Of a DNA stretch of 64,000 bases, positions 1 through 6,000 are shown piece by piece; the first letter of the stretch is position 1; the number at the start of each line of letters is the position of its first letter. The stretch comes from Escherichia coli (GTDB taxonomy: Bacteria; Pseudomonadota; Gammaproteobacteria; Enterobacterales; Enterobacteriaceae): the NCBI RefSeq assembly GCF_022846255.1, contig NZ_AP025682.1; one strand, 5' to 3'. The position numbers were made by a program.

Positions 1-3000
1 TCGCAGCAGAAAAGAATATTTTCCGAATCCGCATCCAGCAGACGCACGTGCCATTTCCCTTCAGGAAGCAATACACGTGCACCATCATTAAAGTCATAAA
101 AAATATTTTCAGGCCCTGCCTGCGTTGGCGTGTCAGGCGGAGAGATAAAAAATCTATTCTTCAGCGTTGACATATTTTTACCTTCAAAAATATATAAGCG
201 TTGAAAAGTACGATGAGTACGCTAAAAATATAACTAAAGTGTCTTTCTTATGATGAGTAACACCCATCGCACGGTTCTGATATTCTTCTGTAATAGCAGA
301 GATGAGTTCACATATGACATTCTCACGATGTCACACCTCGCGCATTCCATTACATTTACCCAACGACTTTAGTCGTTGCAGATGAAATGCACCCTGCATT
401 ATTTCCGGCTACGCGCAGGAGTTAGTTTACAGTTTACGTGCAGAAAGACTTATCAATTTCGGAAGTGTATCCGGTCAGTACGTAACGTTACAGCGCTTAC
501 AAAAACGTCCTGTTCATTATCCATGCAATATCATTCCGGTTTCTCAGACCGATTTTAAATATCGCCTTTTGTCGGTAGTAACACACATTGCTGTAATGTA
601 TCTGCATACGCTTTGCAATATCACTTACAGTTTCACCGCCAAGAAGTGCATTTATCACCTGTCGCTCATTAGCACTTAAACGCTGAAATCTATACCCACT
701 ACTTATATAGCGAGAAGGCACGGTCAGAATGCGCAGAAAAATATTTTTCAATTGATGAAAGCTTTGTGACGGAGAAATCCAGGTAAAAGGATATTTGATA
801 TTATTCTGCCCTCCCTGATGGCCAAATAAAATGCATGGAGTCCCTCTCAGTTCGTGGCGTTCAGAATAAAGGACTGACAGATTCCACAAAAACCACAAGG
901 CCTTCACAATCACTGATGACTCATGGCAGGTGAGATCTACCACAATGACACTCTGTTTCCCGGGGAGGTGTCTATCAGACAGAATATGCGACACAATCTG
1001 CTCCGGTGTTTCCACGGAATTAACCTGAACAGCATGTTGCCCGGCACTTTCCATCACTGCAAAAAGCCCGAGGCGGGTGTACTGACACTGACTCATCAAA
1101 AATATCTGTTTCATCCGTATTTTGTCAGCTCCTGAGGAGCCTGTTCATTCCGTTTTCTCGATACCATCCACTGACGTAGTTTCTGAAATTTTGTCTGTGG
1201 CCTGAGTGACTGCTTTGCTGCGGGGGCAACAGGTTCCAACTGAACATCCAGTTCTGCTCCTGAACTGGCCGGGATTTCCTGCGGATCCTGTATATCCAGG
1301 ATCCGAAGAGCGCGTCTTCGTCCCGTTGTCGGTTCGTTCTGTATGAAGCGCCTGCTGCGGATATGGTTTCGTCCCTCGTGCTCAATGTAATACAGAATAT
1401 CTTTTGCTGTTCTCTGGGTTATATGAAACTCCCGGCTGACCGCCTCAACTGTCAGTAACCTGCCGGTTCGCATCCCCCAGAAGGTCACGATGATATACAG
1501 TGGTCGAGCCTGCATGTCCTGAACACACTCAGGACAGAAAAAATGTCTCTTTATTCGTCTGCGTCTCTCAGGCATACCCGCCACCTGAATATCTCTCCGT
1601 CAGAAGTATGAATTAAGAAGCATTGACATCCCTCCCCCCAGTAATTACAACAAACATCTGTTGCCGCATGTGTCGGGTTATCAGTGCTGAGTAACGCGCA
1701 ATACAGGTGCACAAGAAGAGGATCTGTTGTTGTCAAAATGACCCATTTTGACAACAACAGATTAAAAAACTAGATTTTTGCTATTGTCTGGTTTTATTTT
1801 CTTAGCTGTGTGGCGTTTTTGGCTGTTCATACTATTAATGGAGTTTTGGAGAATTCAGAAAACTGACAGACATCAATGCCATATTGTTACAGAAGGGATT
1901 TGATACGGGAGTTTTATTGATTTAAATCAAACAATTTTTAATTAATTGTTGTTTGCATAACCTGTGTTTTTTAACATTTGTAACCTCAATACAGGCAGTT
2001 TACAGTTTGGGTCAAAAAGTTGCTTTTTCGCCCTTTTTGACGGCTTCCATAACCGTTCAAAGCGGGCCGAATTTGAAGCTGTATAAATCACCGTATGCCG
2101 GATATTCCGGTGTCCCAGGTAATCCTGAATCAGGCGTGTATCGATGCCGTTATCTGCCAACGCGTAACCACACCCATGTCTCAGCATATGTGGATGGACA
2201 GCAACAGCCAGCCCGGCATTTCTTCCTGCTTCAGCCAGCAAGTTATAAAAACGTTGACGGGTAAGCGGACGCCCTGATCTGGAAATAAATAGCCAGTCCC
2301 TCTCTTCTTCTGCTGCAGGCAATTTTATAGTTTCCCGGGCTTTGAGCCAGTTCCTGATACATTGTACTTCTTCAGTCAGTAAGGGATGCACGGTACTGAA
2401 GCCGTTTTTCAGGCGCCGAACGCACAGCTTTCGGGACTCGAGCTCAAGGTCAGCAAGACGTAACGAAAGCATTTCGCTGACCCTGAGTCCGTGGATAAAA
2501 GCAAGAAGAATCATGCAGGCATCACGTTCCGGGTGGTGCCCCTTCAGCACCGCCCGTAACAAAAGGCTGACTTCATGGTGAGTAAGAAATTTTCGGGAAG
2601 ACATTAATCGCTCCGGTCAGATGAAACAGAGCGCTCAAGAGTGACACGATGCCCCCATCAGGCTATGGCTAAACGTGCTAAAGTCAGGAAAGCAGAATAA
2701 AACTCCGATTGCTCTTAAGAACAGTCAACTGGCATGGACCCACAGGTATATCAAATGAATTTAATCCAGCAACTGGCGGGAATTATCGAAGGGAATCTGA
2801 ACAGTCCACTGTCAGTAAAAGTTCTTGCTGAACGTTCAGGCTATTCAGAACGCTGGTTGTACAAACTGTTTCAGGATGTAACCGGGATCAGTGTAGCGCA
2901 GTACATACGTCGCAGAAAACTAACACTTGCCGCTTTACTTTTGCGCCATACCAGTCGCCGGATAACAGACATATCACTAATGTATGAGTTCAGTTCGCCC

Positions 3001-6000
3001 CAGGCTTTTTCCCGTGCTTTCAGGCAACAGTTCAAGGTGTCACCAGTGCAGTATCGCAATGCGGATGCCTGGGATATGCAGTATGCCCAGCCCGTATTGT
3101 ACAGAACCACACCGTGCACAAAATTCAGAATGATTGAGATAGCTGAGGGCAATCATCCTTCTGTTCCAAACCTTAAAATGCCTGTGAATCTGGGAATAGA
3201 CTTTATCCATACCCAGAGCGGCGATCATTTTATTTATAACCGTAACCTTTTTGAGTCCATAATATCAATTTATGGTCCTGTTAATGAAATGTCTGACTTT
3301 ATGATTTCAGGCGAAATGATACCCTCCAGAGAAACGGATTCTGAACTAATTTATATTTTTAAAGAAATAAACAGTTTTTCCCTGCCAGAGACGCTTCTTC
3401 CTGATGGTTTATATGCCAGCCGGGAATTTACTGGGACATACAAAGAGATTTTTGATTTTCATATATATGATGCCATGGGTGCGCTGTGTATTAATAAATG
3501 TGTTATGAAAAGAGGACCTATATATACACTATTTCACAGAACAGATAATAAAAATATTATGGATATGCAATTCCTCATTCCTTGCGTAAAAATTTAACTT
3601 CGCCAGACCCGATTAAAACGACCAGGATTACTGGCTGTATACAGTACAGTATGATGAATGTTCCTGTGTCCCAGATAATCCTGAATCAGACGAGTATCCA
3701 GTCCCTGATTAGCAAGAGCATAACCACAGGCGTGACGCAACATGTGTGGATGCACCTTAATTCTCAGACCCGCACGTTGACTATATCGTGCGCAGAGTTT
3801 ATAAATCCATTGTCTGGAAATTTTTTTCCCATGGCTTGACAGAAAAAGATAATCATCCTGACTACCTTTAGCGTATCTTTTTCTGATCAGGAGCCAGCGT
3901 TGCAATAGTTCTATTGTTTCTGGCTGCAATGGATGTGAAGTTGATAATCCGTTTTTCAGCCGCCTAATAAAAACAATTTTTTCAGTCATATCAAAATCTC
4001 CCAGTCTAAGGTCTATCAATTCACTGACGCGAAGTCCATGAATGTAAGTTATTTGCAGCAATGCTTTATCACGGATTTCATTGCGTGTACCCGTTATAGC
4101 ATTAAAAAAAAGCGCCCATTCGCTGTTGGTGATGTATTTACGCATATTTCCTCCTATCAGAGTTATATGTAAATTTTACATTTTTAGATAAAAGGAAGAC
4201 TTATCAGTTTCGGAAGTGGGTGTTGTAAGCGTTACCCGAACGCCGTATTGACGTTATCTTGCTTGGTCTTCAAAGACAATAAGTAAGCCCCTATACTGAG
4301 ACGTGGTGGAAAAATCAGTTTACATCCAGGGCAATAACTTCTTCACACGATGGTCGTTCGTTGGTGTGTAGTGGATCGGTAATTCAGGACACCTCGAAAT
4401 CCTGTTAATGTTAAAACAGTGAAAATGAGGTGATGCATGATCAAAACTCGTCGGACTAAACGTACCTTTTCCCCGGAGTTCAAACTTGAAGCTATCGAGC
4501 AGGCGGTTAAATACCAGCGTGATGTCAGAGAAGTCGCGCTGGCACTCGAGCTCAACCCTGATCATTTGCGTAAATGGATACGGTTGTATAAGCAGGAACT
4601 TCAGGGTATTGAGCCCGCTGGTAATGCTATTACCCCTGAACAACGCGAAATTCAGCAGCTTAAAGCGCAGATAAAGCTCCCTGAGATGGAAAAAGAAATA
4701 CTAAAGCAAGCTGCCGTGTTGATGAGCAAAATCCCCGGTAAGCTGTCGCGCTAATCACACGGCTGAAAGTAAAGTGGCCAGTGCGGGTTCTTTGTCATTT
4801 ATTCGGTATTCACCGTAGCGTTTATTACATGCTGGTGAAGCGTCCTGTTAATGTGCAAAAAATTGAATTACGAAGTCGGGTGAGGGCTTTCCATGCTCTC
4901 AGTCGTGGCGCAGCCGGTAGCCTAGCATTCAGTCAGATGTTGCGCCAGAGTGGCGTTGATGCAGGCCGGTGGCTGGCACGACGGCTGATGCGGGAATGCG
5001 GGCTGACAGGTCGACAGCCGGTTAAACATCACTACCGGGTAAACGAAGACAAAAGTCCGCCATTGCCAAATATACTGAACCGGCAGTTTAACCCCGCCGC
5101 ACCAGACGCGGTCTGGTGCGGCGACATCAGTTTTATTCGCCTGCAGGACAAATGGTGTTATCTCGCGCTCGTTGTTGATTTATATTCACGTCGGATTATC
5201 GGTTCAGCCCTCCCATTAACCGCTGATGCTGAGTTGGTGTGCAGGGCTTTGCGTAATGCACTGGAAACACGACCGCGTGATGACCGCCTGCTGTTTGATT
5301 CAGAGCAATGTGTTCAGTATAAATGCAATAAATACAGAAAGTTACTCTGGCGTTATGGGGTAATGCAAAGTATGAGTCGCAGAGGGAATTGCCTGGATAA
5401 TTCGCTGATGGAAAGAGTCTTTCGCAGCCTTAAAAGTGAATGGCTTCCGAAAGGTGGTTATGGTGATTTTAGCCATGCGGTACGAGATATAAACCCGTGG
5501 ATTAATGGTTATTACAACGTTTATCGACCTCACACGAACAACGGTGGTTTACCGCCTTGCTTACATGAACAGGTTATCCCGGTGTCCTGATTTTGTGATC
5601 CACTACAAGTTATATGTGCTTGACTTTATGATTTTTTAGTTAAATAGAATAATTGGTGCAACTTTAAAGTCTTTTCTACTTAAAGGATACAACTTTATTG
5701 GCTCTACACAATTGCAGCGAAGTCGTCCTGAGCTATTTCCGAAAGATGAAAATTATTAGAGTCGCATTAAAAATGAGCTAATTTTGATAGTGGTTATCTT
5801 GTGATTATTTTCTAATGAGCCTGTGAACTGAAACCCTCCATGCTTAATATAAGGTGGAGGGAAAGATGATTAAAACTCCCCCAGTGGCCAGATCTTTATA
5901 AAATATGAACAGGTTGAAAAAATCAGCAACTTTGCTGTTTATTTATACTTAACCACTATGCATTAATGCTGCGTTATTTCATGATACCTAAGAAAAACCA

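Follow-up and report, generated by a model that had tools for sequence, protein, structure and literature searches.

The locus described here raises the question of why a gene for a Rob-like regulator of the AraC/XylS family should lie between the genes of two FimB/E-type recombinases, and whether it could connect a small molecule in the environment to the switching of an adhesin. It occupies the first 6,000 or so positions of a stretch of 64,000 nucleotides (nt) from Escherichia coli (NCBI RefSeq assembly GCF_022846255.1, contig NZ_AP025682.1); the whole of this stretch is referred to as the window, and its positions are used throughout. An earlier note on this DNA had suggested that the recombinases might be controlled by an environmental ligand through the regulator. 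Such control is plausible, and the explanation that we favor, with a probability of roughly one half, is that the protein, of the Rob type, senses a ligand and activates the IpuB-like recombinase as well as tibCA, and that it is built into a mobile, ipu-like phase-variation cassette. A chemical signal would then probably set the frequency at which the adhesin is switched on and off.

As judged from sequence comparison, positions 1 to about 6,000 are the regulatory end of the tib island, which is named after the TibA autotransporter. Positions 1-2425 are 98% identical to the tib regulatory region of the enterotoxigenic E. coli (ETEC) strain H10407, and the whole 6 kb is matched at 97% in seven complete E. 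coli chromosomes. As listed in Table 1, the minus-strand cassette consists, from left to right, of tibA (past the window edge), tibC, tibB, tibD, recombinase 1, the regulator on the plus strand, and recombinase 2, beyond which a remnant of an IS3 insertion sequence (IS) and then yhiM follow.

The reading frame of the regulator at 2734-3597, its place between two FimB/E-type recombinases and its convergent 4-nt stop overlap with recombinase 2 had been described in the earlier note, and the open reading frame (ORF) calls, together with the domain and family matches, reproduced all three. The TAA stop codon of the regulator is at 3595-3597, and that of recombinase 2, on the minus strand, reads TTA at 3594-3596, so that both stops are within the common tetranucleotide TTAA. 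The start had to be revised: position 2734 is that of the longest ORF, whereas Met8 (MNLIQQ...) is the start in 19 of the 21 homologues and in the Prokaryotic Genome Annotation Pipeline (PGAP) annotation of the closest E. coli genome, and the regulator therefore likely starts at 2755 and has 280 residues. Full-length homologues were found in Escherichia, Citrobacter, Atlantibacter and Salmonella. Relative to the Citrobacter and Atlantibacter orthologues, the ratio of nonsynonymous to synonymous substitution rates (dN/dS) is 0.12-0.17 overall, with 0.06-0.10 for the N-terminal and 0.17-0.24 for the C-terminal domain. By these ratios, both domains are under purifying selection, and the gene is no chance ORF. 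The family comprises 26 clusters at 90% identity, all of them enterobacterial, and 14 representatives at 50% identity; among 5426 complete E. coli genomes, 7 have the gene, and in all of these it is inside the cassette.

The protein has the layout that had been proposed for it, an N-terminal helix-turn-helix (HTH) region followed by about 170 residues. The Pfam families HTH_18 and HTH_AraC match residues 31-109 with E values of 4e-21 and 6e-18, above the gathering score, and on these matches the protein is assigned to the AraC/XylS family. The DNA-binding domain matches PDB entry 7vwy with an E value of 9e-24, its best NCBIfam match is the RobA model (residues 7-121, E 7e-35), and the identity to Rob of strain K-12 is 41% over 132 residues; by these comparisons, Rob is judged to be the closest relative of this domain among solved structures and curated families. 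The regulator is nevertheless classed as no orthologue of Rob, because its scores are far under the cut-offs of the RobA equivalog models (120.8 bits against 380 for NF012228, and 105.3 bits against 426 for NF011701), to which only residues 7-122 align. In the alignment of the homologues, recognition helix 3 reads SERWLYxLF and is invariant in the family, whereas that of Rob reads SKWHLQRMF. Helix 3 of MarA and SoxS is nearly the same as that of Rob, with SKW[HY]LQRMF as the marbox-reading helix. Because its helix 3 differs from the Rob type, the regulator should not read marboxes, and the helix is not that of the Rob/MarA/SoxS regulon.

In a first full-length structure model, the C-terminal half was too uncertain (predicted local distance difference test, pLDDT, 65), and a model of the C-terminal domain by itself, obtained with a more diverse alignment, reached a pLDDT of 83.8. 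This model predicts a GyrI-like (tandem SHS2) domain after the MarA-like domain, and at the level of the predicted fold the Rob-type architecture given in the earlier note is thus right. The search of the C-terminal domain that had been proposed together with this architecture gave a divided result: the GyrI-like fold was obtained in the predicted model, and no sequence match was obtained in Pfam, where the approximately 170 C-terminal residues had none even at E≤10, or in the PDB. Distant relatives of the protein show sub-threshold similarity to Cass2 (E 0.0011-0.016) and to GyrI-like (E 0.002-0.004) families, all under the gathering scores. We infer that the GyrI-like domain may bind a small molecule, the fold by itself being no proof of this.

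Both recombinases match the Phage_integrase family (E 1e-47 for recombinase 1 and 1e-44 for recombinase 2), and they score 254.8 and 210.7 bits, respectively, against the NCBIfam model 'tyrosine-type DNA invertase', the cut-off of which is 221. They are orthologous to the recombinases of the ipu system: the identity of recombinase 1 to IpuA is 64%, and that of recombinase 2 is 66% to IpuB and 47% to both FimB and FimE; taken together, the two cassette recombinases are 47-57% identical to FimB and FimE. The recombinases that adjoin the regulator gene, including those beside distant homologues, form one IpuB-like clade with 59-71% mutual identity, whereas their identity to FimB, to FimE and to the group of IpuA-like recombinases does not exceed 53%.

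Two observations strengthen the link between the regulator and the recombinases that had been suggested from their position: the synteny is conserved, and the recombinase-2 promoter has a conserved operator-like box. The synteny survey is based on look-ups of the encoding contigs and on plasmid matches, and its loci are cited below by their L numbers; a scan of species-representative genomes with closer alignment gave two full-length relatives only. A FimB/E-type recombinase adjoins or lies near the regulator gene at every inspectable locus, and an IpuB-like recombinase abuts it in nearly all homologue loci, including those with a C-terminal identity of 23-38%. The exceptions to abutment are the IS-rearranged locus L011 with its short companion contig L012, and L021; at both of these loci, a FimB/E-type recombinase is still present. 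The full triad of recombinase 1, regulator and recombinase 2 was found beside TibA-like autotransporters in Citrobacter, in Atlantibacter and on Salmonella IncHI1A plasmids, and also on IncF plasmids beside operons for chaperone-usher fimbriae, the C-terminal identity of the regulator there being only 25-34%. In three more lineages (L013, L017 and L022), the regulator is accompanied by a convergent, overlapping recombinase 2, with a C-terminal identity ranging from 23% (L017) to 32% (L013).

The 3' overlap between the regulator and recombinase 2 is a constant feature, but its length varies, amounting to 4, 22, 27, 44, 4 and 32 nt in the six lineages that were read from encoding contigs and to 20 nt in L022; overlaps of 4-44 nt were found in ten further loci (L004-L009, L013, L015, L017 and L018), as well as in L001, L020 and L022. 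In every full triad (L004-L009, L015, L016, L018, L019, L001 and L020), the regulator is on the strand opposite to the recombinases and the adhesin operon. Conjugative IncHI1A plasmids of Salmonella 1,4,[5],12:i:- (L020, approximately 247 kb) carry a complete tib cassette that is 97% identical to positions 1-5710 of the window. Since the complete cassette is found on conjugative plasmids of Salmonella, the unit of switch and adhesin moves between genera.

A repeat scan gave a 26-nt direct repeat at 442-467 and 4193-4218, in which the two marbox-like boxes of Table 1 lie. With the consensus aTTCCGnnnnTGnTAAG (TTCC-N8-TAAG), the box ends 44-51 nt upstream of the recombinase-2 ATG at 10 loci of 6 lineages; a -10-like hexamer (TAnnnT, 4-6 of 6 positions, within a 10-nt search range) follows at a distance of 16-18 nt, its end being 22-28 nt from the ATG. 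The recombinase-2 promoter has no -35 hexamer, and the box is in that place. With the box at about -50 to -29 and TAAG at the -35 place, the arrangement resembles the class II promoters of MarA, SoxS and Rob. When a matrix was built only from the non-tib lineages, the two sites in the window scored 16.4 and 17.0 bits, the higher value being that of the recombinase-2 site, and with the full matrix only these two sites reached 12 bits over the 64-kb window. In a leave-one-out calculation, the box site was the top match in four of the five lineages. Upstream of ipuB, fimB and fimE, which are without such a regulator, the best score of the matrix scan was at most 3.2 bits.

The conserved elements of the box are at positions 4-7 and 16-19. 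The marbox is reported to read AYnGCACnnWnnRYYAAAYn, with the same spacing of elements as in the box. The changed first element of the box would fit the changed helix 3 of the regulator, and the retained A-rich second element would fit its partly retained helix 6. In the fimbrial cassette L018, the box is present and the CaiF and LuxR genes are absent, so that the Rob-like protein is the sole cassette regulator that always occurs with the box. The case that the Rob-like protein may bind the box is circumstantial. The 26-nt repeats were also considered as recombination sites that would excise a 3.75-kb regulatory block; this was rejected, as they are unlike the recombinase half-sites at the invertible element described below, and it is also contradicted by the fixed distance to the -10-like hexamer and the recombinase-2 ATG in distant cassettes that have a single copy.

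The second box, with its -10-like hexamer at the same spacing, is found between tibB and tibC in the window, in H10407, in Citrobacter and in Atlantibacter, which suggests that tibCA has an internal promoter of the kind present at recombinase 2; H10407 retains this box although its regulator gene is gone. The fimbrial cassettes L015 and L018 have no second strong box near the fimbrial genes, and a search of the divergent region at 2605-2754 gave no copy of the box.

The invertible element, designated tibS, is bounded by 7-bp cores, TGACCCA at 1739-1745 and TGGGTCA at 2008-2014, with 262 bp between them. The left site is a perfect 19-nt palindrome at 1722-1762, TTGTCAAAA-TGACCCA-TTTTGACAA, which is invariant in five loci of the same orientation (two from E. 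coli, one from the plasmid pToe17, and one each from Citrobacter and Atlantibacter), with divergence of the surrounding DNA. A reading of this palindrome as a terminator was rejected, since recombination at the left end of the switch takes place at this site. Positions 1739-2014 are inverted in H10407 at 93.5% identity, while the flanks align forward. The element was found in 21 complete E. coli genomes, of which 8 with the full cassette have the orientation of the window and 13 H10407-like ETEC have the opposite one; the orientations were compared between genomes, and the opposite orientation was verified against the strand of the flanks in 12 of the 13. One of the eight full-cassette copies is on a plasmid and has an IS1 in the regulator gene. 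By its adjacency to the recombinases and its occurrence in two orientations, tibS is classed as an invertible switch of the Fim/Ipu type. The last 22 codons of recombinase 1 (1942-2013) are inside tibS, and the right core falls within the stretch that encodes the tail FDPNCK...; after inversion, recombinase 1 would end with ...FDPF and be about 20 residues shorter, as for IpuA. From the homology to ipuS, the orientation of the window, with the long FDPNCK... tail, would be OFF-like, and that of H10407 ON-like.

The ipuA-ipuB-ipuS-ipuR-upaE phase switch of uropathogenic E. coli CFT073 (Battaglioli et al. 2018, PMC6083910) resembles the tib cassette in several respects. Besides the recombinase identities given above, the elements are similar in length (262 bp, compared with 260 bp for ipuS), have the same 7-bp core TGACCCA/TGGGTCA and have similar arms; the distal repeat is inside the coding sequence of a recombinase, the C-terminal tail of which is changed to ...FDPF by inversion; and a LuxR-type regulator and an autotransporter adhesin are downstream. 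In contrast to tib, ipuB and ipuA are divergent and about 750 bp apart without an AraC gene, no remnant of such a gene was found in the ipu locus by tblastn, and no box is present upstream of ipuB. The tib cassette in turn adds the CaiF/GrlA-type regulator of tibD and the heptosyltransferase of tibC and has its own gene order, so that its gene set is not that of ipu.

The fim locus is similar in that two FimB/E-type recombinases act on an invertible element that carries a promoter, but there the recombinase genes fimB and fimE are neighbors, separated by about 480 bp in which no gene is annotated. From these locus layouts and the tblastn search of ipu, the earlier note was correct in that an AraC gene between the recombinases is a feature of neither fim nor ipu. 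Expression of fimB is said to be under the control of NanR, which responds to sialic acid, and of NagC, which responds to N-acetylglucosamine (GlcNAc). Such tuning of recombinase expression by small molecules is the logic that is proposed for the tib cassette; however, the small-molecule regulators of fim are unlinked housekeeping genes, whereas the putative sensor of tib is encoded in the cassette and travels with it. A literature search for an AraC gene between Fim-type recombinases gave nothing relevant, and as far as could be found this variant form of the Fim/Ipu switch, which is conserved and mobile, is without an earlier description.

The comparison with H10407 also bears on the history of the tib genes. 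The window and the tibDBCA locus of H10407 have in common tibB, tibD and the box before tibC. In H10407, however, recombinase 1 is broken by IS600, the regulator and recombinase 2 are absent, and the switch is inverted. The window shows the intact, ancestral cassette, and the tib locus of H10407 is a decayed ipu-like switch that has no intact cassette recombinase and is in an ON-like orientation. A search of the available literature for a link between TibA and an invertible element found none, and a 2020 review (PMC7545054) gives the roles of TibD and TibB as undetermined and mentions no switch.

The favored mechanism can be outlined as follows. In a cassette composed of the adhesin operon, the invertible promoter, the IpuA-like recombinase 1, the regulator and the IpuB-like recombinase 2, the regulator would bind the TTCC-N8-TAAG box at the -35 place of the recombinase-2 promoter. 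The resulting activation of recombinase 2 would set the rate or the direction of inversion of the 262-bp tibS, which would drive tibDBCA. In tib cassettes, the box before tibC would let the regulator co-activate the glycosyltransferase and adhesin genes, and a small molecule in the GyrI-like pocket would modulate its activity. Because the convergent stops overlap with no terminator between them, each transcript must run antisense into the other gene, and antisense transcription of the regulator and recombinase 2 may add a loop of interference. In this outline, we infer the binding of the box, activation rather than repression, the binding of a ligand and the antisense interference.

Several other explanations were weighed against this mechanism. 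The regulator may be chiefly a direct activator of adhesin genes, like Rns, CfaD and FasH of the ETEC colonization factors, its place between the recombinases being historical. AraC-family activators of ETEC adhesins are common, and the strong box between tibB and tibC in the four loci named above, with its equally spaced -10-like hexamer, speaks for this explanation, which we nevertheless regard as unlikely: it is the recombinase-2 box that is kept in all lineages, L015 and L018 being without a second strong box by the fimbrial genes; the pair of regulator and recombinase 2 stays when the cargo changes from autotransporter to fimbriae; and strains of the H10407 type have lost the regulator, yet are the classical TibA-expressing strains. 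Alternatively, the regulator could be an output of the OFF phase, in which a promoter inside tibS, in the orientation of the window, would point away from tibD and run antisense through recombinase 1 into the regulator. The adhesin would be made in one phase and the regulator in the other, and the protein would control unlinked genes. MrpJ and PapX, which control motility, provide a model for such an output. The strand of the regulator in every full triad agrees with this, and one promoter-like match in tibS, TTGACA-17-TAGATT at 1748-1776 (+), is the best in positions 1-4500, with no terminator-like site on the plus strand between it and 2734; moreover, the mapped ipuS promoter points into ipuA when OFF (PMC6083910). 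This match, however, is not conserved in Citrobacter and Atlantibacter, promoter-like matches in the region are no commoner than in shuffled sequences (8 against 9.4 expected), the transcript would have to travel approximately 970 nt, and the regulator has its own upstream region of 150 bp, common with recombinase 1. An output of this kind is accordingly considered improbable.

A coupling at the RNA level only is given similarly little weight. Here, convergent transcription of the regulator would shut down recombinase 2, either through interference or through antisense pairing, and the protein would act elsewhere or on nothing in the cassette. The 3' overlaps in the six lineages and in L022 are in line with such a coupling, as they leave no space in which an intergenic terminator could lie, and neither gene was found to contain a convincing terminator-like site, but the overlap is conserved neither in length nor in sequence, purifying selection acts on both domains of the protein, and the conserved box of the recombinase-2 promoter needs a binding protein. 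It is very improbable that the protein is an unrelated passenger, that is, a Rob-like xenobiotic or efflux regulator that came into the island by chance. Its DNA-binding domain is indeed closest to those of Rob, SoxS, RamA and MarA; against this, helix 3 is unlike the marbox-reading helix, the IpuB-like recombinase abuts the regulator at nearly all loci, even where the C-terminal domains have diverged to 23-38% identity, and all seven E. coli genomes with the gene have it within the cassette.

The reading of the protein as a ligand-sensing activator of recombinase 2 and tibCA has to be set against a number of results that weigh against it. A profile of 15 C-terminal sequences gave only chance matches (E 0.4) to all PDB sequences, hhalign placed it on the Rob C-terminal domain with a probability of 1.8%, though with the alignment in register, and the window protein has no significant match to the GyrI-like (PF06445) or Cass2 (PF14526) hidden Markov models; as C-terminal sequence matches are absent, the call of the fold rests on the predicted model. 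In addition, the binding partners of some members of the GyrI-like group, SbmC among them, are proteins and not small molecules. At the promoters, the -10-like hexamers, sought within so short a range, are consensus matches, and the box of L018 is weak and was not the top match in the leave-one-out calculation. At the Hafnia plasmid locus, the regulator is found with recombinase 1, and recombinase 2 is not listed in the annotation, which is incomplete there. In ETEC of the H10407 type, the tibC box is kept and the regulator is gone, and a host factor could be the one that binds the box. These strains reportedly still make TibA under the control of CRP, which is said to act on tibDB. TibA being made there without the regulator, its expression as such does not depend on this protein.

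Adhesin phase variation is usually described as stochastic, with an indirect environmental bias through unlinked host regulators. A ligand sensor that is fixed beside the recombinase gene and moves with the switch among species, plasmids and adhesin types would provide a direct and experimentally tractable path by which a chemical cue could lead to a heritable choice between ON and OFF. A wider and more tentative idea, which we hold to be somewhat less likely than not, is that recombinase 1, the Rob-like sensor, recombinase 2 and the invertible promoter together form a self-contained, horizontally mobile module for sensing and switching, in which a small molecule would set the phase-variation rate of the cargo. 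In that case, a Fim-type DNA inversion switch would for the first time have a dedicated ligand sensor encoded in its own cassette. Two kinds of cargo were seen: TibA-like autotransporters, which occur in Escherichia, Citrobacter and Atlantibacter as well as on plasmids of Salmonella, and, on IncF plasmids, chaperone-usher fimbriae. The decayed switch in H10407 alters the reading of TibA regulation and of the unexplained tibD and tibB, and the proposed operator and promoters provide precise targets for tests.

Table 1. Positions of the features of the tib cassette in the window.
Feature	Positions	Strand	Remarks
tibC, 5' end, autotransporter heptosyltransferase	1..173	-	tibA past window edge
-10-like hexamer TAAACT	424..429	-	after second box
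Second copy of box, CACTTCCGAAATTGATAAGTCT	446..467	-	between tibB and tibC
tibB, LuxR-type regulator	497..1114	-	
tibD, CaiF/GrlA-family regulator	1111..1584	-	first gene downstream of switch
Invertible element tibS, ipuS homologue	1739..2014	.	276 bp; upstream of tibDBCA
Recombinase 1, IpuA-like tyrosine DNA invertase	1942..2604	-	220 residues
Divergent intergenic region, recombinase 1-regulator	2605..2754	.	both promoters expected here
Rob-like AraC/XylS regulator gene	2734..3597	+	longest ORF, 287 residues; probable start ATG 2755, 280 residues
N-terminal two-HTH DNA-binding domain	2755..3078	+	residues 8 to about 115
C-terminal GyrI-like-fold domain (tandem beta-alpha-beta-beta), putative effector-binding	3106..3594	+	predicted model
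Convergent stop-codon overlap TTAA	3594..3597	.	regulator TAA, recombinase-2 TAA
Recombinase 2, IpuB-like FimB/E-type tyrosine invertase	3594..4145	-	183 residues
-10-like hexamer TAAAAT	4173..4178	-	18 nt past box, 27 nt before recombinase-2 ATG; consensus match only
Marbox-like box, CACTTCCGAAACTGATAAGTCT	4197..4218	-	recombinase-2 promoter; candidate operator of Rob-like regulator

At the right edge of the island, beside yhiM (6046-7197), the IS3-family element extends over 4367-5607 and has terminal inverted repeats of 45 nt that are 80% complementary; its transposase is frameshifted and has an internal stop according to the annotation of the closest E. coli genome. Outside the island, an ORF at 7397-9070 matches the YhiJ/YhiL family and is annotated in the same genome. 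In E. coli 06-00048 (L001, 1-1534), a defense pair resembling a cyclic-oligonucleotide-based antiphage signaling system (CBASS) is located just past the tib island; one of its genes encodes a SAVED domain and the other a SMODS nucleotidyltransferase. Downstream of tibA, a small HTH gene and an EAL-domain gene were found (L001, 2577-4143; also in L002, L003, L006 and L020), which in Atlantibacter are fused as GerE and EAL. These EAL genes recall FimK of the Klebsiella fim cluster, an analogy that hints at an input of cyclic di-GMP to the island.

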